64,000 nucleotides of DNA from Cyanidioschyzon merolae (GCA_000091205.1 AP006502.2); one strand, 5' to 3'. Counted from the first letter of the stretch, positions 5,857-63,103 are shown. The notes: generated from the sequence alone by a model not told the origin. Numbers and translations: made by a program.

Positions 5857-7211
5857 TCACTTGATGACTAAAAACTCTTGTTCGGCAATATTGAATTTGA
5901 TCGCGGCATCCTGCGATTCGCTTTGGGTATGAAGCAGGCGTGATAAAAGCTCATCACCAAGCACTGCGCCACATGTGAAGCAACCGGCCTTCTCCCGTAG
6001 AGCTGGTCTCGCCACAATTAGGCAGCGCGCCGTCTCAACAGCAAGTACAGCTGTGGCCTCGTACATCTCTATCGTGTTGCAGATCGCATGAACACGAACT
6101 CTGGCCTGACGATTGCTTTCTACCAAGCTCACCAACGCCTCAGCAAAGAAATGCACTTCCGCTCTAGTGTGCTTCCGAACTTCTTCGTCAGGCCCATAGC
6201 CGTCTGGTTTCCAGTACTTCAGAATCCTCCGACCGGCACGGCCTGCTTTAGAAAGGGCAAAAACAGTCATCGCCTGGAAGGAAAGTCTAAGCAATGCAGT
6301 TCTCGAGTCCAGAAGGACATAGTGACAGTATCGAGCTATTTTGGCAGACTGCGGATTCTGTCGTCCGAGCTGGCGTGCAGTAGCACGCACAACAAGAGGA
6401 TCTGAGCTCTGCAACGGCAGGGCGTAACCCTCAAGCTCGCCTCTCTTCATGTAATGCAGCCTGGGTTTGATGGGAACAGGCCTATTCTCTTGAAGATGGG
6501 TTTCATTAGCAACGCTCGACTGCGCAAAACGTTGCGATTTTCTCCGACGGTAGCTTGCCATATCCTTCAACGATTCCAAAATAGTGTAGAATGTCCCAGC
6601 ACTGACCCCATGGAGTGATCCTTGCGAAAGCGTACTCTGGCCAATGAAATGAATCAAGCATTCGATGCTTACAAGGGATTCAGCAGTGGGCGTCGCCACC
6701 TCGTGGGCATGCTTTTCCAGCAAATTGCTTACGTGTTTGAGAGAAAAAAGCACACCGAGGTCAGCGGGCACAGAATCAAAACCGCATGCTGGAATGACAA
6801 GCACCCCTGCCTCGACGGCGGATGAAAATACGTCGTTGCCCTCACTGTATGGAATACCAAGCTGGTCGATGAAGTTTGGCTCCCCCGTGATATCCACATA
6901 GTCCGCTCCCCCTTGTATACAGGAACGAACGACGTTAAGGCCAGACAGCGAGAAAGGACCTGCACAATTTAAGAGCACTTTTGTTCTTCTGGCCAGAGCA
7001 CTAGCCCCGAAGTGTCGCTCGAGTCCACACTGAAAATCTTGCACTTGCTGTCCAAGCTCTGGCGGAGAGCTTCCAGTTTTCTCAGGTTGCGTCCCGCAAG
7101 CGCTACTTTATCTTCACTTAAATGTTTGAGGGCATACTTCGCAACAAGCGTACCGGTAAAACCGGAAGCCCCGTAAACAATGATGTCAAACTCTCTCTCG
7201 ACTTGCGACAT
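5857..7211 (-). CDS. saccharopine dehydrogenase-like oxidoreductase (NAD-binding); single frameshift in a G-run near 7005
   Basis: ORF 6969-7211 gives the N-terminus MSQVEREFDIIVYGASGFTGTLVAKY...LAGRNLRKLEAL...VDSSDTSG. ORF 5857-7044 continues in the -1 frame with ALARRTKVLLNCAGPF...ADYVDITGEPNFID. A single extra G in the gggg run would join the two frames into the canonical SDH order. Confidence 0.6.
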
Positions 7212-7461
7212 GCCTCAAAAGTGCACCACGATTCCAGAACGCTGCAATAAATGCACTTAGAGGCGGGTCGAGGGGCGTGCGCAGCAAAAGGTACAAGCTC
7301 GGCAGATTTGTTGGCGTAGCGCACTAGACTACCCACTCCTAAGCAATAAAGCTGTTTGTTCTTTATGCGGCCGTAAAAATTCCGCAGCTTGTCGCAGAAG
7401 CCCTAAATCACTCACACGGGCCTCGGAAAACAAAAGTGCTTCCAGGAACTTTGGCTCCAAC

Positions 7462-9087
7462 ATGGAACCCGTTTGCCTCAGCTCTGGGCAACTGATTTCA
7501 GCCAGTGGTGCTTTCCTCGCAGCGCCGGGAACCAACGACGATTTCAAAGCTGAATCCTCTACAGGTACGCTCGCAGAGGACTTGCCTTTCGTTTGTGCAA
7601 TAATTGGGGCGCAGGGGAGCGGCAAGTCGACGCTTTTGAACGATCTGTTTCACACAGACTTCCCAGTCCTGGACGCCTCGAGGACCGGGCCCCGGCGCAC
7701 TACTGAAGGGATCTTTTATGCTTTGTTGCACCTCCAGGAACGCGGCAATTCGCTTCTGATTTTTGATGTGGAAGGATTAGACAGCAAAGAACGCGGATCT
7801 ACTGGTCGACACTTCGAATACAACGTGGCATTCTTTGTTGCCTACACTGCAGATATTGTGATTCTGAACGTGTTCAGTCATGATATTGGGAGGCAAAATG
7901 CCGCCACTTTTCATGCGCTAGTCACTGTTTTGAGGGAAAAATTCAAACTGGTCGAATCCAGTCATAAAAAAGACCGCACGCTTCTACTTGTCGCGATTCG
8001 AGACTTCGATGAGGTCGACGCACCCATAGATGATCTGAAACAAGCGCTCGAAGATGATTTTCACGCTCTTTGGCCCAGTGTTGTACAAGGCAGTGACATT
8101 AAGATGGAAGAACTTTATGATATTCAGTTCTACGGTCTCCCGAGCAAATTGTTTGAAATCGCTAGATTTGAGGAGAAAGTAGATCACATGCGAAAGAGCA
8201 TAATGGATCGATGGCTTCGCACGTCGGGTGGCCTATCCTCGTCATCATCTTTCCTCATGCTTTTCAAAGAGCTGTGGACGGAGATCTCTAATCGGACTTC
8301 TAGTCCTGAGCCATTGTGCATATCCGCAACGGCTTCACTGGTTGAGCTCCTGATTGACCTGCATTGCACGAGAATCATTCAGTACGTAATGGGAGGAGCG
8401 CGCGAGAAAGTACATCGGGCGCTCTCATCTATTCTCGAAAATTTTAGCGATGAAATATCTGTCGCTTCTCTCGCGCTTGAAATTCATGATGAGAGCATTC
8501 TCAAGTACCGCTGGATGGCTAGACACTATGTCCATTCTCCCACCTTTAGCCGGAAAGAAACGGAGCTGCATGGATTGCTGTGGTCACAGCCAGATGGGGA
8601 TCTTGCAAATCTCGTTCGGCAGTACTGGTTTGTCGTCACTGAAAATCGATGCAGGGACTTTGAAGCAGATTTCGCCTCCATTCTTGGAGGCACAGCCGAC
8701 TTTGAGCAGCAAACGCAGCAGCTACGCGGAAAATGGGCCTCTTCGTTGGCAGATTTCTTGCGTGAGGAGTCGCAAAAGCTTAATTCCCTGATGCCAGAGG
8801 TGCAGACGCTCCAGCATACTTGCATGGAGCGCTTCGAGAATCATGTCGGAAGCTGCATAGACGAGAGACGACGCCAGGGAGCTGTGATGTTGCCTACCCT
8901 GGATGGAAATTGGAGGCAATATGGAAAACCTGCTTCCAAAAAGGGAATCTTGCAAAAAATGCGACCCGTCCTGCTGCGCATTCTGGTCATTTACTTGAAT
9001 TACCTGCAGGCGAAGCAACGCATGAAGAGCATCCAATCCCGCAAACGCCGGTGCGACTTGAATATGCCTTTGGGCCCAACGTTCTAG
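7462..9087 (+). CDS. RHD3/Sey1-type dynamin-like GTPase (GB1/RHD3 G domain), possibly 3'-incomplete
   Basis: P-loop AIIGAQGSGKSTLLNDLFHTDFPVLDA...TTEGI...IFDVEGLDSKERG...NVFSHDIGRQNAATFHALV matches the RHD3/Sey1 G domain. The 541-aa ORF lacks the C-terminal TM hairpin, so a downstream exon is possible. Confidence 0.55.
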   Translation: MEPVCLSSGQLISASGAFLAAPGTNDDFKAESSTGTLAEDLPFVCAIIGAQGSGKSTLLNDLFHTDFPVLDASRTGPRRTTEGIFYALLHLQERGNSLLIFDVEGLDSKERGSTGRHFEYNVAFFVAYTADIVILNVFSHDIGRQNAATFHALVTVLREKFKLVESSHKKDRTLLLVAIRDFDEVDAPIDDLKQALEDDFHALWPSVVQGSDIKMEELYDIQFYGLPSKLFEIARFEEKVDHMRKSIMDRWLRTSGGLSSSSSFLMLFKELWTEISNRTSSPEPLCISATASLVELLIDLHCTRIIQYVMGGAREKVHRALSSILENFSDEISVASLALEIHDESILKYRWMARHYVHSPTFSRKETELHGLLWSQPDGDLANLVRQYWFVVTENRCRDFEADFASILGGTADFEQQTQQLRGKWASSLADFLREESQKLNSLMPEVQTLQHTCMERFENHVGSCIDERRRQGAVMLPTLDGNWRQYGKPASKKGILQKMRPVLLRILVIYLNYLQAKQRMKSIQSRKRRCDLNMPLGPTF

Positions 9088-9576
9088 TTTGAGTGGTTGC
9101 TCACACAGACGGGATCCACACGGGGTATTTCGAAAGAGGTTGCTGTCACCCGCGTTCACTAAACAGGATGCAGTGCACAGGACCTGAAAGTTTTGCATCG
9201 ACCAAGATGAACAAGCATCTTATCTGTTGATATCGCTGCATGCTGGAGGTCTCGCGAGCTTGCAGCATCGAACCAAATGGCACTGACAAAATGAGCCGAA
9301 TGTCGATATGCTCGACTGCTGAATACCTAAGGCCGTAAGCAAACTTTGGAGCTCGATGGTATCGATTGCATTATTTCTTTGCTTTTCCGTCAATAGAGCT
9401 CCAGTTTATTTGCGTGCGGGATACAAACATAGAGTGGGTCCGGAGCAGAATTTCTAGAAGACCCGTATATGGTCCGTAGCGCAATTACCTGGAAGCGCTT
9501 CCTGTGAAAGTGATGAGTCCTTTTTGCTGATGATGGTTACGTGATTCCGAGCAACATATCCATATGAGATTTCTGA

Positions 9577-9885
9577 TCACAGGAAGGTTCCTGTATGACG
9601 CAAAAGCGGACTCACGAGAAATACCGTGTCGCCGCGGACGTAAACCAGCTGAAGCTTGCGTCTCTCCTGTCTCACGATCTGCTCGTAAGTCTCCTCATCA
9701 AGTTCAGCTTTTTGTAGCGTTTCCTCGGCATCGCTTATAATAAGGTTCAGGTGCTGATCGTACGCGTGTAGAGTCCCAACGAGTTCTCGATCACCTTTCA
9801 GTTTAACGAACACCCTTTCGTCAAGGGCTATCCGAAGCAGCTCCACGGGCTCCTCTAATTGCCCTTTTCCGACAGTGAACGACAT
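9577..9885 (-). CDS. LSM3: U6 snRNA-associated Sm-like protein LSm3
   Basis: From the internal Met, [93 protein letters not shown] is collinear with LSm3 ([45 protein letters not shown]...EIDEETYEEI...FVRGDGVVLV). Confidence 0.8.
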   Translation of the reverse strand: [102 protein letters not shown]

Positions 9886-11966
9886 GGCACGCTTCCAGCG
9901 CAACAGAGAACCGCCCGCGTATTGACTGCTACGAAGTTCTTTGGCCGTGGAACGCCCGCGGTACTTAAACACAATTTGGCCCCACCGCTGCGTGGAATCG
10001 AGTGCTTGTCCAAAGCGAGGAGCAAGCGATCGAAATTATTATGCAACGTACACTAAAGATCTTAGGCGAGATCCCTGTAACATAGGTTCTTTATTGGATA
10101 GCGAAGGAGGACTGCATTCCTCCTTCTGGTAAGTCATACGACAGTACTCGGATAGCTGAGGAACCCTGAAAGAGAAAAATACGTGCGCTCAGCGCCAAAA
10201 ACCGGATTCTCATAAACAGTTTTGGTTTTACAGTAGAAAACGACCCGTTGATCACAGTGCACAAAGCAAAAGTGACGACGGTAGCCACCAGGGGCGTCTC
10301 TTTTTCTCGACAGCTTGTTCATATAGTTCTGCAAGCACTAGGATATGGTCGCAAAAAGGGTCCAATTTCATGCACGGCCATCTTCCACTGAAATCGCAAG
10401 TACAGATTTCCTGGAACGAAGCGATTGGTTTGAAGCACGGAGAAGTCGCTTTGTTTTTTCAGTCGATTAGACGTCCTTCCGATGAAATGGTCGAAGCCAA
10501 GGTAGGTTCTCGCGGAGCAGAGAACACGTTCTATGTACAATAGATCTCGAGGAGAACGAAGACGTCATCATCGGTTCTAGCTGCAGTGGAGTCATTTGGC
10601 GGCCTCAGTTTCGCTCGCAGAGAATGCTCGTCCACGAGTGCCGACTTTATCGAATCGTTGAAGACTTTTTCCCTGATGTCTGACAATGCCCTTCTGTTTG
10701 AAAATGCGATATTTCACCATTCCCTTTGTGTTCGACGTTTTCCAGACTCTATCGGGGAGTAGAACTGCTTCTCATACCTCCGAAAGCTCAGTGTTTCAAC
10801 CGCATCGAAAGAGTGTTTGCTATCGTGATATGTAATGATCGCTCCTCTGAGAGAATCCCTGAAGTACTTTGCACGGTGACACCAGGACATGCGTCGTTGT
10901 TGTTCCGCAAGTGCTTCTCCCTCTGAAAAGATCCTCATCTATGGGCAAAAAGAAGTGAGTTCATTTTCAAAAATAGAAAAATGAAGGAAAGTTATGGATA
11001 TGTAAGTCGAAGATACTGGAGGCCCGGCGTTGCCGGGATCCAACAAACGAAAAGAGTGCCGAGCCCAGAGGAACAGGAAAAGACGAAGAAGCAAAAGGGG
11101 CGCTAGATGTCGAGAGCGACACGATAGGGGACACTACGACGAGATTGTACTGAAAGCCTATCTTGTACGCCATATCAAGGATTCGCACTATCAAAAATTA
11201 AAAAAGCCATCAGAAACCGTAGCCCGTCCAACTCCAGATTCGTCGACGAAGAGACATCACCCAGGAGCACGAATGGAGATTCTGTGATCCGTGCTGTTCT
11301 GGGGCTTATCAACCCAACAGAAAATGTATCAGAGATATAAAATGGTGCTATCCCCTCATCCTGCTCTATTTCGTGTTCCTGAACCGAGAACTACAACGCA
11401 AGAAGGAGATGGAGCCGTGTGGGAAAAAATCAAGAGTCGTTGGAACGGAAGGCTTTCCTAATGGATAAGCGCTTCAACGTCGTTCCGTTATGCAACATCA
11501 AGTGGCACGTTGTGGCAACCATCGCAAGCGTCCTTTACGGCATCATGGAGATCTGTCCGGAGTTCGATGTAAGCAGGGATGAATTTACGGGTGAAAACAG
11601 GGAAACTCTTTGGAAGCGCACCTTCGATTTCAAACGTCTCAACACGAGCAAGTGAAAGGTATGCTCGGGGACGATCGAAAGCGATGGGGTATCTAAATGT
11701 GGACACTATTGGCACTTTAAATTGGATCGTTCTATTTTGTCTTCGGCTTCGCCCCCGCCGAAACGTGAAGACACAAGGAGATGGATCCTGCAACGCAGGA
11801 GGTGCAGGAGAACGACTTTGTCATCGGCGTGGAGCCCTGAAATACGAATGTCATGACCATCGCTGCTCCCATGCGTGAGGAAGATGGCACTGACGGCAAC
11901 TTACGACAAAAAGACATCCGTCTTTTAAAGTTCTCAAGAACGAGATATTATTGAGAATCGGGAATT

Positions 11967-12760
11967 ATGAATGCATGGAAAAAAAGTGAGGCATGGAGTG
12001 CAGGAGTGAAGGAGCATCGGGAAGCGATCAGCCGGGTGACGAGCCGCGGAGCGCACTTTCAAACTTCTCGTGAATTCATGAAAATTCGCGCTGCTCATGT
12101 CGCGGAGCTGTGGAGAGAGTATACAAAGTCCCGGTGGGCTCGTCAGCATATGAATCTGTATTGCTGGAAACAGCGTGCATTCGCAAAATTCTTCAATGCG
12201 TTGTGCGCTCTCACAGTTGATAAGAGTCAAAGGCTCGAAATAGCATAAACGCAGGGCCCTGTGTGCCCAGAAAAAGGAGCACACAAGCTTTGTCGAAATG
12301 AACATTCATGGATGGCACCCAGTGTCTTGTTCCGGTACGGATAGATGAATTCCGAACGTCATACGTGCACCATGAGCTGGGGTGTACAATTCAGAAGGTC
12401 GAGATGGAGCGAAGGCAGAGGAGCCCTGATGAGATAGAAAAGTACGGAGAGCTGAAAGATCATCGAACGGCGCAGAGGGCGCGAGTTCGAGGAATCCCTG
12501 CGTGAATGAGTTCCACCGGAGGCAATAAGCCAATGGAGTTCGTGAAGCGAGACTTAAACGCCGCGATCAATATCAGAAGATGTGCCCTGCTGAAGACGAG
12601 ACCTGCAGAGCTGACGCGATCCAAGTTTATGGGGCAGCCCCTTATGCCCGATACGTGCAGGAAGCAGCTGAAGCTGATGGCAGGGAGCCGATCAGAAAAG
12701 GCCGGGAGGCGCCTGTGAGGGGGTGTGAATTTACCCCACATGGTCCTGGGACATTTTTTC
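11967..12760 (+). mobile_element. TnpB/Fanzor-like nuclease C-terminal half, frameshifted (pseudogene); 3' end abuts inverted-repeat arm
   Basis: Three consecutive plus-strand ORFs in different frames carry the TnpB motifs in order. The first is W-A-R-Q-H-M-N-L-Y-C-W-K (the W...L.YK motif). The second is V-P-V-R-I-D-E-F-R-T-S-Y-V-H-H-E-L-G-C (the E/TSxxC motif). The third is E-F-V-K-R-D-L-N-A-A-I-N-I-R-R-C (RuvC-III). The zinc-ribbon cysteines are mostly lost. About 45 bp after the stop is still homologous to the 49220-49305 copy. Confidence 0.45.
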
Positions 12761-12789
12761 TTTTACTGAGGATACTATATTTGTTTCAA

Positions 12790-14118
12790 ATTAAAATGGT
12801 CCGTTAAGCTGCGCGCACTGTTTCTGCACTTCGATTTTTCCGAACACTTTTCGATATACAGCCTCATCATCCAATGTACTGCGACCGGGGGCTCCGCTTC
12901 ATCTGTTCTTTAGGGCTCTCTGTCGTCATCTCGAAGTGTCGACTCCGGCTCCGTGCCGCTGGAGCTCGTTCAGCCACACCAACTGGGATGGTTCGCGGCG
13001 CCCCACGGGCAAGAGTTCGTGAAAGTACTGATATCACAACTTAATTTTTACTTAAGAGCTTCCACTCTATTTCTTTCCCCGACTTGCGCCATGCTCAAAT
13101 CACGCACTCTCCGAATTTCGATCTCTCTGTTGCAAGGCAACTCGTGGGTTCAGCACTGAGCGCCGTTCCAGTGACGATGAAAACAACTCGACGTCGTTCC
13201 TCGACGGCTTGTTCACAAGCCCAGGCCGCGAGTTCACTGGACTTGTCATCCCAAATAATCGACTCTGTCCGAAGGATGAAAACTCCTCTCTTTGTGGCAA
13301 TGGATGAAATGGCACCCAACGGCAGCATGACACCTCTCGAGTGTTCTCCGGGGGGCCCCCGAATCTTCTGTCTGCGTGGAAAAGAATCTTGTTCTAAGAC
13401 TTGAATCATCGCAGCGATCGCCTCCAGTGGACAGTGCGTCTCAGTTGTGCACGAGGACGGAACAGACTGATCGAAATATCTGGATGTGTTCCCAATCTTG
13501 GGCTTTTTTCAGGTACTTATTTCAACATGGAAAGCATCGCGCACCACCAATCCTCGACTGAAATGGAACAGCGAGCGCTTGCGCGTGCAGCTGCCAGAGT
13601 GCTCGCGTGCGGGACTACTCAGGGAAAGCGCGTGAGCGTAGCGCACGGCACAGGGCGCAGGACCGGAGGGCATCTACGGGAGCCGCCGGCGCTCGTCAAG
13701 CGCATTCACCGGGCGACAAAGCAAGCGCGCATGTACCACGGGGCGGCGCTTGGCGGATTAGGCGTTGTGGACATTCGTGAGGACCTGAGCGCAGTCACCT
13801 ACCACCGCTATGTGGGCGCATTAAAGTTGAACAGAAAAAGGGTGAAAATGCGAAGCAAAGGCTTGATTGCAACCTTCGTCTGTACATGAAATACGTAGAA
13901 AACAAGAGGAAGCGGCGAAATCGTGGCTGTAACGTTGCCATCAACATCCCTCGACTGCTGGCAACAGAGCTGGACGGATAGGAGAGCACGACGTATTGAA
14001 GGCTGGAGATAAGAGCGGGGAGAAGAACCAGTCACAGAAAAAGCCCGCGCTGGCTGGCGTTGGTGGCATCGGGAAGAGATCCGAAGCTGGGTTGATTCGC
14101 CCTCGTCAGCCGAGTGCA
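12790..14118. repeat. Inverted repeat A, left arm (~1.33 kb), partner 17338-18666
   Basis: Every ORF in 12953-14120 has a mirror ORF of identical translation in 17335-18502, with coordinate sums of 31455-31456. Examples are 13401-13889(+) = 17566-18054(-) and 13095-13409(-) = 18046-18360(+). DNA identity runs from attaaaatggtccgttaagctgcgcgcactg to ccgagtgc. Confidence 0.9.
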
Positions 14119-14266
14119 ATCTTTCAATTTTTTGTCTCGCATGGTAAGGGGCTGTGTGGAGCGGCGAAGAAATGAGAGACGCTTCGTGACGCGCCCCGTT
14201 GCCTACAGTGCTAGGCGAATTATGCAGCCGCATACGCGCGATTTGTGAGCAAACATGCCCGTACAT
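13808..14266 (-). pseudogene. Divergent TnpB/Fanzor-like C-terminal remnant (RDVDGNVTATI sub-family) at inner edge of IR-A left arm
   Basis: The ORF reads ...HSADEGESTQLRISSRCHQRQ...LSVQLCCQQSRDVDGNVTATISPLPLVFYVFHVQ. The pattern D-E-x-x-S-T then C-H...C-C then R-D-x-D-x-N-V-T-A-T-I parallels the E-x-x-T-S / Cys / DxDxNAAxNI order of the TnpB C-terminus. Identical mirror copy at 17204-17647(+). A third, more decayed copy lies at 29555-29700. Confidence 0.3.
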
Positions 14267-15683
14267 TCAAAATCATTCTGCGTATAGTTTATCTTAGACT
14301 GAGCCCGTACCCCTCTGGGCATACTGAGCTGAGATGCGCTCTGTCTATCATAGTACAGATCATGGAAAAAGCCGTGTCATGTGCTGCATGCAAAAAGGTA
14401 CTTTCTGCAGGAATCTTTGTTTTCTGATGCAGCGCGGTTTGAGCTTCGTTTTCAAATGGAACATTTAGTTGTAAAATATTAAGGACAACAGAGGGCCTGG
14501 CTTCATACGCGTTACCGAAGCCATTAAGGCCTAAATCCTGATGCGAAATTGCTTCTGGCCGTTTCTTGGAAAACGAACGGACTTCGAATGCTATTTTTCT
14601 GCATGTTCTTCCATTATGAGACAACAACCTTGGGACTTATCGTGCCCCTTATGTCTGCTACATGGTTTGCTATTCCAGGAGAGCCCCAACAGGAAAAATG
14701 TGCGTGAAATTCCACCGCGAATCTTTTGTGAGGCCTTGAATCATAGGGGCGCCTAAAATACAGAGTCTACGCTGCTTAAAATCCGAATGAAAATATCCTG
14801 CGCCCCTGGGAACGAGAGTGCTTTCCCGAAAAGAGGGGCCCTCTGGAGCGATTTCTTTGTTCTCTTCGATTGACAATTCTTGGAATGTGTGGATATTTTG
14901 AACGTATACGCAAAATCACGGGGAGTTACGCCCAACAAACTTGCACGCGTGAATAGTGGATGAGGTTCATTAAGGCGTAAATTTTTGGTCTTCGAGGTTC
15001 CCCTGAGCGCCTATTCCCAATCATGAAGTAAAGAATTTACATATCTCTCCTCACGCATCTAGCACTGTAAGTACACTCGCAACTTGTTTCCGAATGTATG
15101 ATCAGCCACTCTGAAGCTAGTCATGAAGAGTTCATTCGCAATGTCTGGCGCATTTTCAAGCCTTTCAAGGTCTGATACCCTCTAAATGATATGCCATGAG
15201 GAAGACGCGTCAAGTAGACTAGCACTTCCTGCGCAGTGATAGCCCACCTATTTGATTCACAAAAGAACCTTTGAGCGAAGTGAAAAATACATCGAGCTTC
15301 CGAGAAGCAGGTTCCGTACTCCGAAACGCAAACTTCAACAATGCCACGGTAATTGCCATATGGATGCCGACTATGTTGCGTGCAAGGCTCAGGAACTTGA
15401 TACAATCAAACATTTTCCACCAGGAAGAGCCTACACTCCAACCTTGTATCCAAAGCCTCACGCAGTTTGAAGAATTTCTTGTAACGATGCAACAATCGTG
15501 CTTCAGCTATTTTCTTCGTGTGAGGCCCGCAAGTATAGAAGTCAGCCCTCGCTCCCTTACATTCTCTCGGTAAAACCATTATTGAAGCTAGTTGCTGTAC
15601 GAAACAGGTTCCCAAGCAGAAGCTACACCTATAGGTGGAACTTTTAGAGTTAAGCGCTCGGTGGTGAAACCGCAACTCCCAGC

Positions 15684-16097
15684 CTAGACGTTGAAGGACT
15701 CACCACAGCCGCAGGTTCCCTTCGCATTCGGGTTCCGGAAAACAAACTCACTGGCCAGGTCGTTTTCAACGTAATCCATTTCTGTGCCAACTACGTGAAG
15801 CATAGCTCTTGGGTCTACGAGTACTCGAACCCTCCCGTCCGCAGAAACGACTTCCTCTTCGAAACGTCTCCTCTCCTTCGCGTAGTCGAGCTGGTAAGAC
15901 AGCCCATTGCAGCCGCGCTGCTTCAGGGACAGTCGAACACCGTAAGACTCGGGATGTTTTTCGAGAAGGGACCGCAAACGCTTCGCTGCGGCTTCCGTTA
16001 TAGTCATAGCGGCTCTGCTGCGACACATGGTCAGAAACAGTTGTGTGGAAATCAAAACTTTGATTGCAATCTTTCGCTTCGCTTCCGGATATGACAC
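15684..16097 (-). CDS. ISCA: Iron-sulfur cluster assembly protein IscA/HesB (A-type carrier), probably organellar
   Basis: ITEAAAKRLRSLL...RLSLKQRGCNGLSYQLDY...RVLVDP...VGTEMDYVENDLASEFVFRNPNAKGTCGCGESFNV carries the three conserved Cys. The N-terminus is basic and presequence-like. Confidence 0.8.
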   Translation of the reverse strand: MSYPEAKRKIAIKVLISTQLFLTMCRSRAAMTITEAAAKRLRSLLEKHPESYGVRLSLKQRGCNGLSYQLDYAKERRRFEEEVVSADGRVRVLVDPRAMLHVVGTEMDYVENDLASEFVFRNPNAKGTCGCGESFNV

Positions 16098-17110
16098 GTC
16101 GTCGCCTCGTCACGTTCAGCAAGGCTTGTACCATTGTACCCACATATGAGTGCTTCAACCGGTGCACTTACTGTAATTTTCGAAAAGATGCTTCGGGTTG
16201 GATATCACTCTCCAAGGCGGCTGAGATTGCGCGAACTAACCGGGACGCTGGAGCAACGGAAGCTCTCGTTCTTTCCGGAGAAGTCCACCCAAAAAGTTCC
16301 CTCAGGAGGCACTGGATAGCACACACTGTCGAAATCTGCAAAGTTGCCATCCAGAATGGCTTGCTGCCGCACGTAAACGTAGGACCACTCAGCTGGGGTG
16401 AAATGAAAGAGCTCACAAAGTTCAGCGTGAGTATGGGTCTGATGTTGGAACAAGTCACAGATAAGTTAATGGCAAGCGTGCACCGAAGAGCACCTTCGAA
16501 AGACCCCTCACTTCGCATCGAACAGTTGCATCTTGCGGGTCAGCTGAAGATACCTTTCACAACAGGAATTCTTGTCGGTCTCGGAGAAGAAGAATGTGAT
16601 TGGAAAACCTCCCTGAATTGTATAGCAGCGGTGCACAACAAATACGGGCATATCCAAGAATGCATCATACAGCCCTTTCGTCCTGGTGATCGTGGTTACA
16701 TTTCGGGCCCGAAATTGAATGCATTCCATAGCGAGGCCCTTCCGTATGTTGTGTCACTCGCTCGCAAGATACTACCGACAGAAATCGCTATACAGATTCC
16801 ACCGAATTTAGTACTGTCTGATACAGACCGCCGAAAGGGACTAGAGCTCGTGTTCCGGTGCCTCGAAGCAGGGGCGTCCGATCTCGGAGGTATTTCCCCT
16901 GTCGATGAAGTTAATCCGACCTATGCGTTTCCTAGTATTACATGGCTGAGAGAAGTTCTTTTACTAGAGGGGTTCGAGCTTATGCACCGTTTGCCTATCT
17001 ATGAGCAATATATTCCATGGATTCAGAAAGCAGAGAAATTCGAACATCTTCAAAGACTCTTTCCCGTATACAAGCAAGGCAACTCAGCCAAATCAACCCC
17101 GAAATCGTGA
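16064..17110 (+). CDS. Radical-SAM enzyme, CofG-like (FO synthase subunit 1 family)
   Basis: N-terminal cluster motif VPTYECFNRCTYCNF (CxxxCxYCxF). Also GATEALVLSGEVHP and NGLLPHVNVGPLSWGEMKELTKFSVSMGLMLEQV (the G.LPH.N.G...E...naSmGlMLE block). The 348-aa length is typical of CofG. Confidence 0.55.
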   Translation: MQSFASLPDMTRRRLVTFSKACTIVPTYECFNRCTYCNFRKDASGWISLSKAAEIARTNRDAGATEALVLSGEVHPKSSLRRHWIAHTVEICKVAIQNGLLPHVNVGPLSWGEMKELTKFSVSMGLMLEQVTDKLMASVHRRAPSKDPSLRIEQLHLAGQLKIPFTTGILVGLGEEECDWKTSLNCIAAVHNKYGHIQECIIQPFRPGDRGYISGPKLNAFHSEALPYVVSLARKILPTEIAIQIPPNLVLSDTDRRKGLELVFRCLEAGASDLGGISPVDEVNPTYAFPSITWLREVLLLEGFELMHRLPIYEQYIPWIQKAEKFEHLQRLFPVYKQGNSAKSTPKS

Positions 17111-17203
17111 TTTTTTGACAAGCTCTGATAGGAGACCTTCACAAATGAGCCCACGTATCTATAACGGCTCGCAAAATATGTGCTGCAAAGGGCGACGTGA
17201 ACA

Positions 17204-17647
17204 TTGCTAACTAGGCGAAGATTGTTTTTCGTAGAGGGTTGGCTGAAATTAGTCAAGTTGCAAAATTTTCGAAGATTTTTACCTTTTCAGAGATGGTTTC
17301 CGTCACTTCACCAGTGTAAGCCAACAAATGAACGATCGCACTCGGCTGACGAGGGCGAATCAACCCAGCTTCGGATCTCTTCCCGATGCCACCAACGCCA
17401 GCCAGCGCGGGCTTTTTCTGTGACTGGTTCTTCTCCCCGCTCTTATCTCCAGCCTTCAATACGTCGTGCTCTCCTATCCGTCCAGCTCTGTTGCCAGCAG
17501 TCGAGGGATGTTGATGGCAACGTTACAGCCACGATTTCGCCGCTTCCTCTTGTTTTCTACGTATTTCATGTACAGACGAAGGTTGCAATCAAGCCTTTGC
17601 TTCGCATTTTCACCCTTTTTCTGTTCAACTTTAATGCGCCCACATAG
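17204..17647 (+). pseudogene. Mirror copy of divergent TnpB/Fanzor-like remnant at inner edge of IR-A right arm
   Basis: Identical C-terminal 100 aa to the 13808-14266(-) ORF. The unique N-terminal part EGWLKLVKLQNF resembles the TnpB W...L.YK block. Confidence 0.3.
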
Positions 17648-18666
17648 CGGTGGTAGGTGACTGCGCTCAGGTCCTCACGAATGTCCACAACGCCTAATCC
17701 GCCAAGCGCCGCCCCGTGGTACATGCGCGCTTGCTTTGTCGCCCGGTGAATGCGCTTGACGAGCGCCGGCGGCTCCCGTAGATGCCCTCCGGTCCTGCGC
17801 CCTGTGCCGTGCGCTACGCTCACGCGCTTTCCCTGAGTAGTCCCGCACGCGAGCACTCTGGCAGCTGCACGCGCAAGCGCTCGCTGTTCCATTTCAGTCG
17901 AGGATTGGTGGTGCGCGATGCTTTCCATGTTGAAATAAGTACCTGAAAAAAGCCCAAGATTGGGAACACATCCAGATATTTCGATCAGTCTGTTCCGTCC
18001 TCGTGCACAACTGAGACGCACTGTCCACTGGAGGCGATCGCTGCGATGATTCAAGTCTTAGAACAAGATTCTTTTCCACGCAGACAGAAGATTCGGGGGC
18101 CCCCCGGAGAACACTCGAGAGGTGTCATGCTGCCGTTGGGTGCCATTTCATCCATTGCCACAAAGAGAGGAGTTTTCATCCTTCGGACAGAGTCGATTAT
18201 TTGGGATGACAAGTCCAGTGAACTCGCGGCCTGGGCTTGTGAACAAGCCGTCGAGGAACGACGTCGAGTTGTTTTCATCGTCACTGGAACGGCGCTCAGT
18301 GCTGAACCCACGAGTTGCCTTGCAACAGAGAGATCGAAATTCGGAGAGTGCGTGATTTGAGCATGGCGCAAGTCGGGGAAAGAAATAGAGTGGAAGCTCT
18401 TAAGTAAAAATTAAGTTGTGATATCAGTACTTTCACGAACTCTTGCCCGTGGGGCGCCGCGAACCATCCCAGTTGGTGTGGCTGAACGAGCTCCAGCGGC
18501 ACGGAGCCGGAGTCGACACTTCGAGATGACGACAGAGAGCCCTAAAGAACAGATGAAGCGGAGCCCCCGGTCGCAGTACATTGGATGATGAGGCTGTATA
18601 TCGAAAAGTGTTCGGAAAAATCGAAGTGCAGAAACAGTGCGCGCAGCTCAATGGACCATTTTAATC
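17338..18666. repeat. Inverted repeat A, right arm
   Basis: Reverse complement of 12790-14118, near-identical. See the left-arm evidence. Confidence 0.9.
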
Positions 18667-18695
18667 TCTCACCGAGCTTGAACCGTCGAGAAATT

Positions 18696-19147
18696 CTAGC
18701 TGGAAGCGCGAAATTTGCGCGCGCGTTTGCATAGATTTTCGATCGCGATCTGAATTGTTCTCTTTATTTGGGAGCAATGTTTCATAACGTGCTTAGGCTC
18801 CTTACAAGTGTCGTGGCAGAAAACCGAACGGTCCAGTTCTGTTTGACGGGATTCTCGAACAACAATATCGCCGGAAGTTCGAGGGATTTGCATTCAGAAC
18901 AGAATATGTATTTCTTACGATTTCTTTGCTGGCAGCTTCGGGACCAGTGAGGTGGTTGGTTAATTCCAGTGAATCACTAATGTACAGCGAACCTTTATCG
19001 TTATATACTTGCACAGGAAAGCGTTTTCCTGTATTTACACTCGATTCACTAACCTCAATGGTTTGCTGTGCCATTCCATGCCAGAACCATGCTCCAGGCC
19101 AGAATACCATAAGTCTCATCTGGGTCAATTACTCTCTCTCACGGCAA
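18696..19147 (-). mobile_element. Degenerate TnpB/Fanzor-like C-terminal remnant flanking IR-A right arm (mirror position of 11967-12760)
   Basis: Minus-strand ORFs read ...F-R-R-Y-C-C-S-R-I-P / I-P-R-T-S-G-D-I-V-V...F-C-H-D-T-C...K-H-C-S-Q-I-K-R-T-I-Q-I-A-I-E-N-L-C-K-R-A-R-K-F. This shows RIxxRTS, Cys remnants about 36 aa on, then a K-R-x-I-x-I-A-I-x-N pattern equivalent to KRDLNAAINI. The match is at protein level only. The DNA is not alignable to the left copy. Confidence 0.3.
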
Positions 19148-19837
19148 TACTTTAGCGTTTCAGGAGAATGGATTGACTGAGTATTGAATGATTCCCTGGG
19201 AAGTTAACTCGACTCAAAGATGCTGAACGCTTCCAATGCACAAAACATTTCCGGACTTTGATCGAGGCGCTCACTTCTCGTTGCGGAGAATATTTGAGCG
19301 AATTTTTGCTGGTAGGAGCACACCCGAGCAAGTCTCTCACCTAGCTTTGCACTCCCATTTGACGTCTGCTCAGCTTGCTGGGGATCATCTGGTGAATCAG
19401 GCTCGTTTCACTTGTTTCCCCAGCAGCAATTTCAGTTTGCATTCTGCGCTCGTAATAAGTTTACGCCGCCTTGAATTCAATGGTGGTACTCGTAGAGAAT
19501 CATCTCTGCAATCAGTTCTCGCGCTCGTAGAAGGAACAGAAGAGCATCTTTGTACGCTATAACTCCAAGATCGTCACTGTCTACCTTCGAAACACAAGGC
19601 ATATCTGCCATTTCTTTTTTTGACTCCACTGAAGAAAAATGGCGAATGAACGCTTCCTGCATCCGTACAATCGACTGCATTGCGTTCCCCAGCGCAGGTC
19701 AACTAACCTCTAACGAAGATCGTCTTCAAGAGCCAGTTGGACTTTCAGGTCCTCTCTGGATCTAACCTCCACAGCATGCCACTCAGATGGATACGGTGCT
19801 CCAACCGTCGCTATCGGTTGTAACCCCGTCATTCCAA

Positions 19838-21152
19838 ACGTTCGTGTGCCTCCTGACGCCCATCATGCTTCACTCTAGTATAAAGCCCTCGAAAATTTGC
19901 ACACTATCATCTGGATTCTGTTCAACTCTTTCATTCCGCTCTCTTGATTTTGAGATAAGGCAACCGCGCGATGTATTTCTCTTCATTTATCTTGGACGGT
20001 TGAAAATCAGCATCGTTAGTTGAGTCAAGTTTAAGTTTCACAAAGTGCATGCAGCCTGGTCTTCCGTCGGTCTCCATTCTCCCTGCGTACTCCTTACGAT
20101 TTCCTGCCCTGTAAGGCGAAACGTCGAATCAGCTCTACCCATGATCTTCGGAAAGCTGTTCGAGTGACCCGTGCTCGCTGCCAGAGACCGGCCGTAGCCC
20201 ACTGAGTGGAACGTATAGTACAGAGGAGTCTGCTGTGATTAGTGGGCGTTGAAGTGACGAACGAGGGCCGCTTCGAGCAGACGCTTACGGAGTCGAGTGC
20301 ACCCGCATTGGTGGACGGAGTCTGCTTCGCTCTCGAGGGCTCTCTTGAGGCAAATATAATGGGGCGAGAGATGCAAGCAAGGCAGGTACCCCGTTAACGC
20401 CATGGTATGGATAAGACTTGTGCCGATCCTCTCGAGGGCTCTTTTGAGGCGAATATAATGGGGCGCGGAATGCAAGCAAGGCAGGTATCCCGTTGACACC
20501 ATCGTATGGATAAGACTTGTGCCGATCCTCTCGAGGGCTCTCTCGACGCGAATATAGTGGTGCGCGAATTGCAAGCAAGGCAGGTATCCCGTTGACGCCA
20601 TCGTATGGATAGGACGTGTGGCGATCCGAGTCCGAGATCCACTCGATAGGCGCGGGCGATCTGACGCGAGTCTCGCTCTCGGTGCGATATCGCTTCCGGC
20701 GTCGTTGGCACCTCGATCCCATCTGTCACCATCAGCTTGTCATTTGCCTCCTTCGGCACTCCAAGAAACCGTTCTATCAGTCACCACTTTTTTGGGCCAG
20801 TAAGGTGGCTAAAACGGTTCTAACTTCCAAACGGTGAACCGATTGAAGCACTCGAGATTGTCTCGCGTATCGTTTCATTTTTCAGGTTGATTCGATATTT
20901 TTCTCTTTCGTCATAGATATTCCGATTGCTGATGTGATTTCATGACGTACAAATGTTTTCTCGCAAGCGTGCGTGCAGATCTTGTATACTGCGATCAGGC
21001 CGTGTTTCACGTTCTGTCGCGAACGCTGGTAGAAGAACGAAGGATTTGTACAAAAATCCGTGTGGAATGAGGGCAGCTCGCAATGCGCATCCGGAACTTG
21101 CACGAGCATTTGCATGACGAGCTGTGCCATGGCAAGAGAAGCTATACTAGCC
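19838..21152. repeat. Inverted repeat B, left arm (~1.3 kb), partner 37853-39179
   Basis: ORFs 19787-20023(+), 20239-20601(-), 20285-20722(-), 20394-20759(-), 20616-20837(+) and the 3' part of 20882-21295(-) have near-identical mirror ORFs at 38982-39236(-), 38404-38967(+), 38283-38720(+), 38246-38611(+), 38202-38387(-) and 37874-38122(+). Confidence 0.9.
20331..20640. repeat. Tandem repeat, 99-bp unit x ~3.1 (mirror copy 38365-38674)
   Basis: The tctcgagggc landmark recurs at 20331, 20430 and 20529. Units are ~90% identical. The translated repeat STGYLPCLHSAPHYIRLKRALERIGTSLIHTM(V/A) appears in three frames. Confidence 0.85.
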
Positions 21153-22682
21153 TTCCTCGGGTAAAAGGCTACACAATATCTGATGGGGTCGTGCATGTCA
21201 CATGTAGGAAAATTCTTCCTGTTAAAATATTTTAGTCGGTTGGCTTCGCAGAGATTCCAGACCAAACGCTCCGACCAATTGTCTTTCCTGTGCATTCTTG
21301 TCTTACACTTGGTAGAATCTTTCTCTCCATTTTCTAGCAGTATTTCGCCTTCTCTTGCGCTCAGCTTGCTGGCTTCATTGTCGTCGGTAAACTCAACATC
21401 CGTTTTTCCGCCTGATTCATACGTACCGGATGGACGGTGAGATCAAGGCTCGCTTATTGTGAGTAAATAAGATTGCATCTTTTTTCCCACATATAACTTT
21501 ACATCATCTGTTCCCTAGCGACTTTGCCCATGGAATGGGATGTGCGTTTTGGTTCCCTCGCGCGCTCGCAAAGAGAAGCAATAGTTTGTTTCAGGACAAT
21601 AGAAAGAAGAGAATGATTTGTCTACGAGCGTTTTCACGAGCACGATAGACTCGTTCTCGCAGATGGCGTCTCACTATGTGAGACGAACATGCCCTTTGTG
21701 TGATAGAAATTCGCGTTTCAGTGCGAGATCGATAATATACAGTTAATCGTGCGACAATCTCACAATGTGGCGTAATTTTTTTGCTCATCCGTTTCTTTTC
21801 AATATCGTTCATATTAACGGTACATAAACTTCACATCACTTCTTTTCTTTGGTAGCTTTTCGTAGAGAACGTAGGGAATGGAATGGATCGATGGGGGAAG
21901 ACGCGTGTAGGTACAGTTTCGCAAATTCAGGCATGAGTGCATGACGTTCAGAACAAGGGCTAAACGAAGGGAAGCTCATCAACCTTTGAACCATAGAGCG
22001 ACTGACAGACGTAATGCCATTTTTCGCAGGCTCGTAGTGACAGCATACCCTCTCCCGAAACCTCTCTCCAGTTTGCAGGATGCATTTCATTTGTTGGTTA
22101 CGAGCGAGAAAATCAAAAATAAACAAAAAGAATGCGCTAGTCAATGTGCAACAGAACTCACTGTTCTGCGCACAACCACTCTGAGCGTAACGAACACGAT
22201 TCAATCGTGTAAAGCGTGTTTTCCGGGTGCTCCCACCATCGCACGATCTCATACCAAGTTACTTGAGGAGCGTACTTAATAGATCGTTTCCCCATACCCA
22301 GACACTGTCGTATGTCACAACGGCATACCAGTGCGCTTAGGAGTCAACTGACGACAAGTCAGGGAGTATACGCGAAGGGAGCCACACCGAGTGGCTCAAA
22401 ACCGGCTCCCGCGCCAATGCGCGTAGCTCTTGTACAATGGCTGCATAACCGCTTTTCATAGAAAACCAAAATGAAACCTAAGGCGTGTTGCAGCGACCAG
22501 CAAATCATCAATACTTTTTGGGCCGATTGGCGAGGGCGACTCCATCGACCGTTACACGAATCTCCGAGGCGGCGGATCCGCGACGCCTGCGGCTGCGATT
22601 TTATCTTCTAAATAATTTCGCATCCGCACAGTTCTAGCTCACAGTTGCCGATAGTAGTTTCCGGCTCCTTAGTTTCGTTTAG

Positions 22683-24092
22683 ATGGACCATGACTTTTGG
22701 TGTAGTGATCTGGAGTTTGAATCATATCCGGAGTTGATGAGTGGGAACGGGCGCGAGAGCTCCGTCGACGCAACTGCTGCCGACGGTGACGGTGCTGGCT
22801 GCAGAAACCCGCTCAGAGAGACACTTGACTCGCACGCAAAGCCACTCGGTAGCGATCAATTTTTCGAGCAGGTTCTGCCTAGAGAGGGCGACTTCCTTCA
22901 CGAAGGCCCTTTTCTTAGTGAGGACTCGTTGCAGCGTTTGCTGCTTTCTGTTTCGTCTCCCAGGACCCATGGCGAGTCACAGCTCTCGGAAGAGAAGTCC
23001 ACTCCGGACAAGAGGAGAAGCGGACAGTCAGGTAAAAGCAATAAGGCAGCCCAGGGAGACATACTTGAAGACCCGGAAAGCTTTGTCGGTACTCAAACGG
23101 ACGCCCATGGCGACAATACTGTCAGCCTTCGGGACGTTCTTGCGCTAGCGTTGCCGCGAGTAGACCCGTACTCGCGCCAGCGTCTCCTTGAGCTCCACGG
23201 TTTACTTCGCAAAGGTTCTCTCGATGTGTATGGATTTATCAGCGAGCTGCGTAGAGTTATAGGCTCTAGGATGCTTCGTGAGCTGGCAACCGAGCTGGAA
23301 ACGACTCAGCACGATTTTCTCGAGTGTGAGAGGACTCTTGGGGCGCACAAAACCCAAGAATCATTCATAGAACCGAGTCAACAAAACGCTATGGAGTCTG
23401 TTGAAGAGATTTCTCTCTTGGAACCAGCAACCATGGCGGGAACCGAGGTGTCATCAAGCGAAAGTACGCCACTCTCGACGTCCCAGAGCGCGTCCACCAG
23501 CAAACCGAAGAAGCGCGCTTGGACCCGACTCGAACATTATATATTTTTGAAGGCAATGCAGATCTACGGTAGAGGGAAGTGGAAGTATATCGCCGACGTC
23601 CTGCCCGGTCGAACTCCAAACCAGGTTGCGAGTCACGCCAAGAAGTTTTTCCTGCGACAGAGAAAGAGCTTGAAAGACAAGCGAATGCGCAGCATACATG
23701 ATCTCGTTCTCTCAAGTCCTGAAATGCGCGAAGTGGAACGGGCCCTCGAAACTGGAGCGATTGAAACGCCGGGGTTCAATCTGGCGGCACTGGGTATCGT
23801 TCGGAAGGTACAGTCCGTGTTTCCCCGGCCTGCGCCTTCACATCATGATGGAAGCCTCAGTGGGTGGGAGACTGCCCTTCCTGGGATCAGCAGGAGAGCG
23901 GAGTACACGTCTGCCCCCATGTATCCTTCCGCGGACTATGCGGGGACAAACGCTCACATGGGAGACCCGATGACGCGCAGCTGCGACCTGCGGCTGCGAC
24001 GTTTAGAGTACACGGCCCATTTGCTCCGTCAAACGATCTCCACGATGCGTGCTCAAGCTTGCGGCACCTTAGTCGATCCAAGAGGGTCTTGA
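22683..24092 (+). CDS. MYB-like transcription factor, SHAQKYF class (single MYB/SANT repeat)
   Basis: KKRAWTRLEHYIFLKAMQIYGRGKWKYIADVLPGRTPNQVASHAKKFFLRQRK is a MYB repeat with the SHAQK(Y/F)F signature (here SHAKKFF). The flanking regions are acidic and Ser-rich. Confidence 0.6.
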   Translation: MDHDFWCSDLEFESYPELMSGNGRESSVDATAADGDGAGCRNPLRETLDSHAKPLGSDQFFEQVLPREGDFLHEGPFLSEDSLQRLLLSVSSPRTHGESQLSEEKSTPDKRRSGQSGKSNKAAQGDILEDPESFVGTQTDAHGDNTVSLRDVLALALPRVDPYSRQRLLELHGLLRKGSLDVYGFISELRRVIGSRMLRELATELETTQHDFLECERTLGAHKTQESFIEPSQQNAMESVEEISLLEPATMAGTEVSSSESTPLSTSQSASTSKPKKRAWTRLEHYIFLKAMQIYGRGKWKYIADVLPGRTPNQVASHAKKFFLRQRKSLKDKRMRSIHDLVLSSPEMREVERALETGAIETPGFNLAALGIVRKVQSVFPRPAPSHHDGSLSGWETALPGISRRAEYTSAPMYPSADYAGTNAHMGDPMTRSCDLRLRRLEYTAHLLRQTISTMRAQACGTLVDPRGS

Positions 24093-24668
24093 ATGCTCTA
24101 TCTCCGAGAAGCATCCAAGGCATCTCACGGGTGAAAGGATCAGTGTTAGATTCCGCATTCGTACTTATAAGTGTCCAGACCTGATCCTTTACACGCTTCG
24201 ACGCAGGATTTAGATGTGTCCATGCATATGAACAGTTAGCATGTTGATAAATCGCTATTCTTTAACTTTCTGGGCACGAATGCAGAATCGTTTGATCCAT
24301 ACTTGCCCAGCTCCCACTATCTGAACACATGCTGGTACTCGTGTGAACGGATATCTGACGCTTTCTAGCCTTTTCGGAAGGATCTTGGCTTCGCAGGCGC
24401 TTCGGTGCGCCCCAAGAACTTGTGCTAGATTTCATCATACGGGAGAGCTTTCTGAGTACCATTATACATCTGAAAACGAAAACGTCTTTACTTTCTTTAA
24501 TTGGAGAAGCGCAGTCATATGCATCTCGGTCGGGCCGGGCATGTCATCAGGTGCGATGCGCATTCCACATGCGGGGCGATTCAGGACCCGAGTATGATGC
24601 AACCGCAGTTCAACCATGTACTGCAGCCTATAATTCACTCTCTATTTCTGTATCATTTGGATAATCTA

Positions 24669-26066
24669 CTAGGGAGTGCCACGTTCCATGTCCACTCGTC
24701 GAGTGGTTTTCCAGTAGGGAAGACATTCCGATGGCTTCCAAATGCAGAGCACGACAGTCCAGTATATAAAGAAGATCCGGTGCAATGAGAAGATAAGACC
24801 CAGAAGCGCTAGCCGCAGACTTGCGCAAGCTTGGCACATGAGTCCTAGGCCCCAGACGAGAAGGAACGCTAGATGAAACCAAACCGCACGGTTTCCATTG
24901 AACCAGAATGAGAGAATAAATTGCGGAAGCAAAAATATTGGTGCTAGGAGCACACAAAATTCTACGAGTTCGTCAGGGTCGTTCCACCAGAGGCAGGGCA
25001 ATGACTCCAGATAGTCCGTATAGCGACGGTAGCCGCCGTAGACCCAGCGAGCCCGCTGCTGAAAAAGTGCCTTCCAGCTAGGAGCTAGTTCCTCCATAAC
25101 GTAGGTATCATCGATGTAGTGGATCTTCAGACCCGCAATTTTGAGGCGACAAGTCATATCAACGTCATCACCCGTGGTTTGATCATTGAAGAAAAAGCCT
25201 CTGAGAGCCGACCTGCCATCAGCAACATGCAAGATGACAGCTTCGTCGAAAAACATGCCATTTCCTCGTAATGAAGCACAACCAGCCCGACGAATCTGTC
25301 TCTGAGAGGAGACGAACCAGTCAGCCATATAGTCCGCAACCTGGCAATCCTCAAGCAGGGATCTGCTACCCCATCGAATGGGCTTTTTGAGGACCTGAAG
25401 AACAAGCGCGTCTTCGCTCAAAAATACTGCCGCTAGAGCCGCGAGAAGGCGGGGATCGCACTGTGCATCCGCGTCCAAAAAGCCAATAATATGCCTCTTT
25501 TTCGGTGAAATAATCACATCTTGCTCTCGTTCATAGAAAATGTACTTGAGTGCTGCATTCAAAGCACCAGACTTGCCTCCGCCGATATCGTGCTGCGGAC
25601 GTGCAATCGCTTGGCACACAGGCAGAGGTCGCAATGTGTCCCGTATCCAATGATGAATACGGTCAAAGGAACCATCCGTCGAATGGTCATCAAGTACCAA
25701 AATCCGATAGGAATCCACTGGGTACTTAAGGCCAAAGCAGAGTTTCTGCAGAGTCTTGCAAATCACGCCGCTTTCATTTTTGCAAGGAACTACCAGAGTG
25801 AAGAACGGGAGACTTCCAGTATCAATATCAGCTTCAGGGATTTTTTTAGTTGTAACCTTTTTACGCACTAGGAACGCCAAAAGATATGCGTCTAGTAAGA
25901 TAGCCGCTATATGGTAAACTCGTGAGGCTGGTCTCCAGAGAAACGACACTACGCCCGCCCCGAGGACACACAAGGGCAAAAGCACCGATCTTGAGCGCCG
26001 GTTGCTCGTTTCCGGCAACATCGAGAGGCCCGCGCAAGGTACTCGGACAGAAGTACCGCACAGCAC
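24669..26066 (-). CDS. Family 2 glycosyltransferase, processive type (cellulose/chitin-synthase-like), multi-pass membrane
   Basis: LVVPCKNESGVI, LDDHSTDGS, the DxD motif in FLDADAQCD, and QQRARWVYG (the Q-x-x-R-W motif of processive GT2). Hydrophobic segments at both termini. Confidence 0.7.
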   Translation of the reverse strand: MLCGTSVRVPCAGLSMLPETSNRRSRSVLLPLCVLGAGVVSFLWRPASRVYHIAAILLDAYLLAFLVRKKVTTKKIPEADIDTGSLPFFTLVVPCKNESGVICKTLQKLCFGLKYPVDSYRILVLDDHSTDGSFDRIHHWIRDTLRPLPVCQAIARPQHDIGGGKSGALNAALKYIFYEREQDVIISPKKRHIIGFLDADAQCDPRLLAALAAVFLSEDALVLQVLKKPIRWGSRSLLEDCQVADYMADWFVSSQRQIRRAGCASLRGNGMFFDEAVILHVADGRSALRGFFFNDQTTGDDVDMTCRLKIAGLKIHYIDDTYVMEELAPSWKALFQQRARWVYGGYRRYTDYLESLPCLWWNDPDELVEFCVLLAPIFLLPQFILSFWFNGNRAVWFHLAFLLVWGLGLMCQACASLRLALLGLIFSLHRIFFIYWTVVLCIWKPSECLPYWKTTRRVDMERGTP

Positions 26067-63089: not shown

Positions 63090-63103
63090 GGGGGGGGGGG
63101 GGG
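63090..63103. repeat. Poly-G homopolymer tract (14 nt)
   Basis: Direct reading: g at 63090 through 63103. Confidence 0.9.

Follow-up and report, generated by a model that had tools for sequence, protein, structure and literature searches.

Inverted copies of a decayed Fanzor1-derived repeat flank the IscA-CofG gene pair of Cyanidioschyzon merolae and were probably homogenized by gene conversion

A 64,000-nt stretch of Cyanidioschyzon merolae DNA (GCA_000091205.1, AP006502.2; hereafter the window, in which all positions are counted from the first letter) contains a near-perfect inverted repeat that encloses two divergent genes, one encoding an A-type Fe-S carrier (IscA) and the other CofG, a radical SAM protein. 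Our analysis indicates that this striking structure is neither a gene cassette nor a switch but consists of two decayed Fanzor1-type repeats on either side of two metabolic genes. Each arm is a complete copy of a discrete, interspersed repeat of ~1.36 kb, here called the R-unit, which descends from the 3' part of a Fanzor1 (TnpB-like) gene, and the interiors of the two resident copies were probably made identical by gene conversion between the arms.

Extent of the inverted repeat and its recurrence in independent assemblies

A repeat finder and self-BLAST placed the arms at 12790-14132 (arm 1) and 17323-18665 (arm 2), 1343 nt each, on either side of 3190 nt of unique DNA (14133-17322). The initial annotation, which had drawn the arms at 12790-14118 and 17338-18666 and called them virtually identical, was essentially right: base-by-base comparison found six mismatches in 1343 nt (12803, 12806, 14118, 14122, 14127 and 14130), and the core of 1311 nt (12807-14117) is 100% identical to arm 2. 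All six mismatches lie 17 nt or less from an arm end (P = 2.6e-10 under uniform placement). Gene profiles of the 3190-nt segment likewise confirmed that the arms enclose only IscA (-) and CofG (+).

Arms of this kind could in principle be produced by assembly or polishing, either through a collapsed or duplicated contig end or through polishing with multi-mapped reads that equalized two different sequences; polishing can make long repeats perfectly identical, and short-read contigs do break at the arms. The material for strain comparison was metagenome contigs (JGI, ENA and Logan samples) rather than reads. Ten independent contigs cover the unique segment, with 99.6-99.8% identity, and end in or at the arms, and a scan of the metagenome contigs with a 37-mer from the arm yielded six more. 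Among these contigs the left outer junction is crossed by L017-L019, both inner junctions are present in L003-L009 and in L020, which covers arm 1 from 12807 onward and the entire spacer and enters arm 2, and the right outer junction is crossed by L021. All four arm junctions thus recur in independent assemblies from different samples, and for this reason the inverted repeat is real and not an assembly artefact, a possibility that had been raised against it. Contig L004, moreover, carries both arms, which within a read length of unique DNA are identical except at their ragged inner edges. We therefore regard an artefactual origin of the arms or of their identity as extremely unlikely. Three of the contigs, from different samples (L001, L002 and L010), start within 25 nt of each other, at window positions 14449-14471, where no repeat or low complexity is evident.

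The arms as copies of a dispersed repeat

A third copy of the arm sequence, ~65% identical in BLAST and of the same extent, lies at ~62.1-63.5 kb (62108-63500, +), with boundaries that match those of the arms. A DNA profile search added copies at 29360-30712 (-), 49361-50218 (+, truncated) and 53493-54845 (+) in the window, as well as copies on other contigs (L016, L033-35 and L037-43), giving at least ten sites in all. The six copies in the window all begin at ATTARAAT while their upstream flanks are unrelated, and the homology of the family extends to a common CATGG-type motif, which lies at ~14150 in arm 1. Because the start motif and the terminal CATGG-type motif are common to the copies of the family, each arm is a complete R-unit. 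Arm 1 corresponds to 12790-14152 (+), with its 5' end outside, its 3' end inside and boundaries common to other copies, and arm 2 to 17303-18665 (-), with its 5' end at 18665, where contig L021 confirms the outer junction, and its 3' end at ~17303.

Across the whole R-unit the two arms are 98.8% identical, whereas unrelated members of the family are 54-60% identical to each other in a star-like pattern. Near-identity is confined to two groups, namely arm 1, arm 2 and the copy on L016, and the pair at 49361 and 53493. The view that the arms are unique DNA between older insertions has therefore to be abandoned, as they belong to a dispersed, Fanzor1-derived family; the condition named at the outset as refuting the original reading, that they are copies of a genome-wide repeat, largely holds with family members at no fewer than ten sites. 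No other copies of the right outer flank (18666-19202) or of the unique DNA at 14133-15683 were found in the contigs examined. The R-unit appears to be non-coding: it has no intact open reading frame (ORF), a six-frame comparison of arm 1 with the copy at 62 kb revealed no preferred coding frame, and changes in its longest ORF are mostly non-synonymous (~6/7).

Fanzor1 ancestry of the R-unit

The left flank of the inverted repeat is occupied by a near full-length, decayed Fanzor1 pseudogene (Fanzor-A; ~10968-12789, +), which contains stops and frameshifts and whose 3' end abuts arm 1. Profile matches cover 11075-12631 (profile positions 6-608), the motifs GVEP, IDEFRTS and KRDLNAAINI are visible, and other contigs hold Fanzor copies that share 70-73% DNA identity with it. 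The Fanzor-like remnant first reported here (11967-12760, +) is thus genuine and larger than claimed.

This relationship emerged only with a broad profile. The left remnant as a single sequence had no match in Pfam or the Protein Data Bank (PDB), a narrow profile (A2) used alone reached Fanzor with an E-value of 0.25 only, and an AlphaFold2 model of P0123, a relative of Fanzor-A, built from the shallow A2 alignment had a mean predicted local distance difference test (pLDDT) score of 40, too low for the model to be of use. The broader profile, A4, comprises the full-length homologues recovered with the left-flank remnant together with P0123, and it matches the solved Fanzor1 proteins of Parasitella (9cf0, 5e-22), Spizellomyces (8gkh, 7e-15) and Guillardia (9cer, 1e-7); one homologue, P0466, passes the Pfam threshold for PF07282, the Cas12f1-like TNB domain.

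The majority consensus of eight R-units, read on their own strand, aligns to positions 492-612 of A4 (E 1.1e-13), and the alignment contains the stretches VIVGHGTG...PSVPVKG, VVDIWEY and NRDFNAAINI. Since the R-unit consensus matches the Fanzor1 profile in this way, the arms are identified at the sequence level as decayed Fanzor1 3' parts (C-terminal RuvC) that point inward, an ancestry that is visible only in the family consensus and not in comparisons of single copies. Of the RuvC catalytic motifs (GxDPG, DEFRT and NRDxNAAxNI) the arms retain only the RuvC-III motif, mutated to NRGCNVAINIP, which the consensus restores to NRDFNAAINI and which reads RNRDLNAAINIP in copy c30; motifs that can be recognized despite mutation are what one would expect of pseudogenes. 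The outward-pointing RDVDGNVTATI-type fragments that had been proposed at the inner boundaries of the arms turn out to be a wrong-strand reading of this motif (a decayed NRDxNAAxNI), which points inward, and QQSRDVDGNVTATI arises when the DNA encoding NRGCNVAINIP is read as its reverse complement. An intact Fanzor ORF of ~600-700 amino acids is absent from the window, where all copies have stops and frameshifts. The idea that the R-unit is a mere 3' module of full Fanzor elements was rejected, because no R-unit adjoins five other Fanzor loci and every R-unit begins at one and the same base.

How the arms became identical

The identical tract does not coincide with the R-unit. It begins 17 nt inside the 5' terminus and stops ~15-35 nt short of the 3' terminus, and in the terminal 35 nt of the arms 20 of 35 positions match, which is close to the 54-60% typical of the family. 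Identity right up to the boundary would be expected of a fresh insertion or a plain segmental duplication; the arms lack it, and we therefore favour gene conversion between two resident R-units as the probable source of their identical interiors. Two old, non-coding R-units would have resided downstream of IscA and of CofG, respectively, oriented opposite to each other, and repair by homologous recombination would have copied one arm onto the other, so that unit positions 18 to ~1328 were homogenized while the unit termini escaped conversion and retained their older divergence. The arm pair would at the same time constitute a recombination substrate, in which a crossover in the arms would turn the 3.2-kb IscA-CofG segment around and break no gene.

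Comparison of strains is consistent with conversion of the arms, and the variant sites are no farther than about one read length from unique DNA. Both arms of L004 contain a 3-nt insertion (at 14021) that L003 has in arm 1 only; L003 and L007 share 14090G>A together with its partner 17365C>T; and L001 and L010 have arm-1 bases at 17333 and 17337, which extends the tract, so that its boundary differs between strains. Such between-strain variation would be expected if conversion is ongoing. Homologous recombination is known to be efficient in Cyanidioschyzon merolae (PMC3764038, PMC5348525), and other repeat pairs in the window (the pair I2 and the palindrome at 34527-35336, both described below) show a perfect core and ragged edges like those of the arms.

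Recent duplication or transposition without conversion, in which one arm is a fresh copy or the arms belong to a young, active R-unit subfamily and the mismatches at the ends are later mutations or junction noise, would readily account for the absence of differences in the 1311-nt core. It would also fit the sharp edges of the direct pair at 49360/53492, and the copy on L016, whose core is 98-99% identical to the arms in another context (Ran, PDH E1-alpha), suggests a young subfamily at three or more sites. Against it, the mismatches at the arm ends account for six out of six, the last ~35 nt are as diverged as between unrelated members and yet homologous to the family terminus, the tract boundary varies among strains with derived variants on both arms, and the unit has no intact ORF and has accumulated changes that are mostly non-synonymous in its longest one. 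Both recent duplication and gene conversion had been suggested for these arms at the outset; plain duplication fails to explain the diverged unit ends, and we consider it rather unlikely, while the end-confined mismatches, the diverged termini and the variants shared by both arms in other strains favour conversion.

Several points weigh against conversion between the arms. Unrelated R-units are ~58% identical, which is too low for conversion to start, and the copies must have been much more alike when conversion began, or else a third, young copy overwrote them. Contig L016 does contain, beside a Ran GTPase gene, another near-identical copy or a recombinant. Metagenome contigs can themselves be mosaics of strains or of repeat copies. 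Finally, no inversion isomer of the IscA-CofG segment was seen among the contigs, none of which spans a whole arm with both of its flanks.

The contig L016 (Ga0080006_1152659, 1-12553) has the left flank and arm 1 (window 10901-14078) running into genes for Ran GTPase, PDH E1-alpha and others, not into IscA-CofG. Its arm-like core has a different 3' end, and at 2130-3560 the contig has another old R-unit and at 4547-4666 a Fanzor 3' end. It may represent an arm-like third copy at another site, a strain with a rearrangement, a recombinant, or a chimera.

The close association with Fanzor1 remnants raises a further mechanism, in which a trans-acting Fanzor1 would make RNA-guided cuts at the R-unit ends and repair from the other arm would bring about both homogenization and rearrangements, with guides supplied by transcripts that run on from a Fanzor 3' end into the neighbouring unit. 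In favour of this, arm 1 starts 20 nt after the end of Fanzor-A and the R-unit at 49361 starts ~43 nt after a related Fanzor-A 3' end, all large repeat pairs of the window either derive from Fanzor1 or abut its remnants, and the identical tract comes within 17 nt of the 5' terminus of the unit. If this were true, the arms around IscA-CofG would be a by-product of nuclease-triggered repair and not of passive recombination, and Fanzor1-derived repeats homogenized by such cuts at the unit termini would be the main substrates reshaping gene order. However, the Fanzor copies of the window are all pseudogenes, Rfam gave no match for an omega-RNA in the window (no dedicated structure search was made), the five other Fanzor loci lack an adjoining R-unit, the two adjacencies may descend from one old composite, and nothing beyond adjacency supports a nuclease role. 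We consider both the cutting mechanism and the wider role for it in gene order very unlikely, and return to gene conversion through homologous recombination as the favoured explanation.

The enclosed genes and their position in related algae

The window contains long, intron-free ORFs for eukaryotic housekeeping genes and has a G+C content of ~50%. Its CofG is 99% identical to P0001, which occurs on many hot-spring metagenome contigs, 64% identical to the protein of a sister species and 59% to that of Cyanidiococcus yangmingshanensis; the identities of TopoVI-B rank the relatives likewise, with Cyanidium caldarium next at 62%. On account of these rankings the window is assigned to the nuclear DNA of a Cyanidiophyceae red alga. 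The IscA gene (15684-16028, -) encodes a carrier of the IscA/SufA family of 114 amino acids (PF01521, 3e-17; TIGR00049, 109 bits) and occupies the corresponding position in the loci of three relatives; CofG (16091-17110, +), subunit 1 of FO synthase, has 339 amino acids (NF004884, 347.5 bits against a cutoff of 209; TIGR03550, 251 bits).

Two inverted, inward-pointing elements of the same kind around a small gene pair are also what a composite transposon would look like, with IscA-CofG mobilized as cargo. Comparison of orthologous loci, which had been proposed for the arms, argues strongly against this. The gene order of both the sister species (L011-L014) and Cyanidiococcus (L015) is saccharopine dehydrogenase-like (-), RHD3 (+), LSM (-), IscA (-), CofG (+) and IF-2B (+), with a gap of 0.85-1.6 kb between LSM and IscA, and these loci gave no match to the Fanzor protein profile or to the DNA profile of the arm family. 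The pair in the window has the same position and orientation beside LSM as in these relatives. Our comparison thus shows that IscA-CofG is resident and syntenic, with its ancestral orientation, and that the repeats around it are lineage-specific; the possibility that the cargo had been displaced from its ancestral site was discarded on the same grounds. As the pair is syntenic in relatives without arms, and as the elements are decayed and encode no transposase, a mobile gene cassette is effectively excluded.

The two genes are arranged head-to-head, ~60-90 nt apart, in all three algae (window 15684-17110, where the distance is ~60 nt; L011 5636-7067; L015 9585-11038), and this conserved divergent pair may share a promoter.

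A neighbouring inverted pair and an inverted block of seven genes

The right side of the inverted repeat differs from the description first given of it. The Fanzor-like fragment proposed at 18696-19147 (-) gave no signal with two Fanzor profiles, and the spacer that follows arm 2 (18666-19202) is free of Fanzor profile matches; the nearest remnant is a second full-length pseudogene, Fanzor-C, at 19203-21220 (-), ~540 nt from the arm. The matches to Fanzor-C (19203-19748, 20015-20263 and 20538-21220) are collinear with profile positions 606 down to 41, and its 3' end points toward arm 2. The broader claim that older Fanzor-type insertions lie outside the arms is supported.

Fanzor-C belongs to the next inverted pair, I2, whose left arm (19718-21159) lies inside this pseudogene and whose right arm (37843-39284, +) overlaps the remnants of a second one, Fanzor-C' (38739-39756, +). 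The I2 core is ~99% identical and its edges are ragged. Between the arms lies a block (21160-37842) with genes for Myb, GT2, CGI-121, a kinase, a 287-amino-acid ORF, NAC and IF-2B. The corresponding order is CofG-IF2B-NAC-248aa-kinase-CGI121-GT2-Myb-TopoVIB in Cyanidiococcus, kinase-CGI121-GT2-Myb-TopoVIB in Cyanidium and CofG-IF2B-NAC-248aa-kinase in the sister species, so that the block in the window is reversed relative to all three, with breakpoints that coincide with the I2 arms. Because of this reversal relative to the relatives, the seven-gene inversion is derived, and it is the expected outcome of a crossover between inverted copies of an element. By analogy, I2 makes the same capacity plausible for the arms around IscA-CofG, where the enclosed segment is itself in ancestral orientation and shows no inversion relative to the relatives.

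In L021 (JGI24721J44947_10030711, 1-5319) window positions 35039-38576 are joined to 20528-18548, which places the block beside arm 2 in its ancestral orientation. The contig is a mosaic at the few diagnostic sites available, the I2 cores being so similar, and may reflect polymorphism for the inversion or else be a chimera assembled through the I2 repeat; it was not relied on for the inversion. Each I2 arm also contains three tandem 99-bp units that are 84-91% alike (20330-20626 and 38378-38674).

Fanzor1 remnants across the window and comparison with known systems

Fanzor1-derived pieces were found at 1-223, 11075-12631, 19203-21220, 29505-29588, 34528-35370, 38739-39756, 49004-49189 and 50236-51086, in addition to the six R-units. 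These amount to a very high density of more than ten pieces in 64 kb, all of them decayed and all intergenic. R-units begin 20 nt (12770-12790) and ~43 nt (49317-49361) after Fanzor-A-type 3' ends, with spacers that align poorly; these two adjacencies could reflect either one old composite that was copied or a preference for head-to-tail insertion.

In Cyanidioschyzon merolae, Fanzor1 has been described as ~150 diverged copies without terminal repeats, accompanied by an unclassified short partner element (PMC3627910). Judged by description, the family in the window resembles CMe-1A and TE-N2_CMe (Bao & Jurka 2013, PMC3627910), in that both are old Fanzor1 (TnpB-like) families with many diverged copies, lack terminal inverted repeats and clear target-site duplications, and have shorter, non-coding relatives that share part of the element. 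They differ in that the short unit represents the 3' part (RuvC C-terminal) in the window but the 5' 635 bp in the case of TE-N2_CMe, and in that copies in the window have diverged far more, being 54-60% identical to each other, whereas those of CMe-1A are ~80% identical to their consensus. The density in the window, set beside CMe-1A, is about ten Fanzor1-derived pieces in 64 kb.

Two wider phenomena provide a frame for these findings. The arms of plastid inverted repeats and of Y-chromosome palindromes are kept identical by arm-to-arm gene conversion. The arms around IscA-CofG resemble these conversion-maintained palindromes in being near-identical, in having differences confined to the edges and variants on both arms across strains, and in the potential flip-flop of the spacer; they differ in being small (1.3 kb) copies of a mobile element that bear no genes, and no inversion isomer of their spacer was seen among the contigs. 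Ectopic recombination between inverted copies of transposable elements, in turn, is a cause of inversions. I2 would be such a case, with two inverted Fanzor1 pseudogene copies at both breakpoints of a seven-gene inversion, whereas for the ancestral IscA-CofG segment inversion is only a capacity. The structure is thus a new example of known phenomena, combining inverted repeats derived from mobile elements, concerted evolution and recombination-mediated inversion. It provides a case from the Cyanidiophyceae in which dispersed Fanzor1 remnants appear to act as recombination substrates and nearby copies appear to evolve in concert, which bears on the loss of synteny in very compact, recombination-proficient genomes, and the arms around IscA-CofG offer a simple locus at which inversion isomers may be sought.

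Other repeats and genes in the window

Rfam and tRNA scans of the 64-kb window returned no matches. The direct repeat at 49360-50216 and 53492-54348 (857 nt, two mismatches in the core, sharp edges) consists of two R-units of the arm family and flanks a gene of 666 amino acids (51387-53387, -), which a crossover between the copies would delete; the unit at 49360-50216 is cut short by another Fanzor1 remnant (50236-51086). A near-palindrome at 34527-35336 lies in a Fanzor-A-like 3' end and has 351-nt arms, 108 nt apart, with ragged edges and a core (34555-34825) that is 100% self-complementary; it resembles a fold-back duplication at a Fanzor 3' end. Lastly, the valyl-tRNA synthetase gene is split into two ORFs (45202-46881 and 47032-48405) that are ~150 nt apart. 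The same split is found in L032 and in the sister species (L044), while Cyanidiococcus has a single gene model of 1002 amino acids, and the split is probably a conserved intron.

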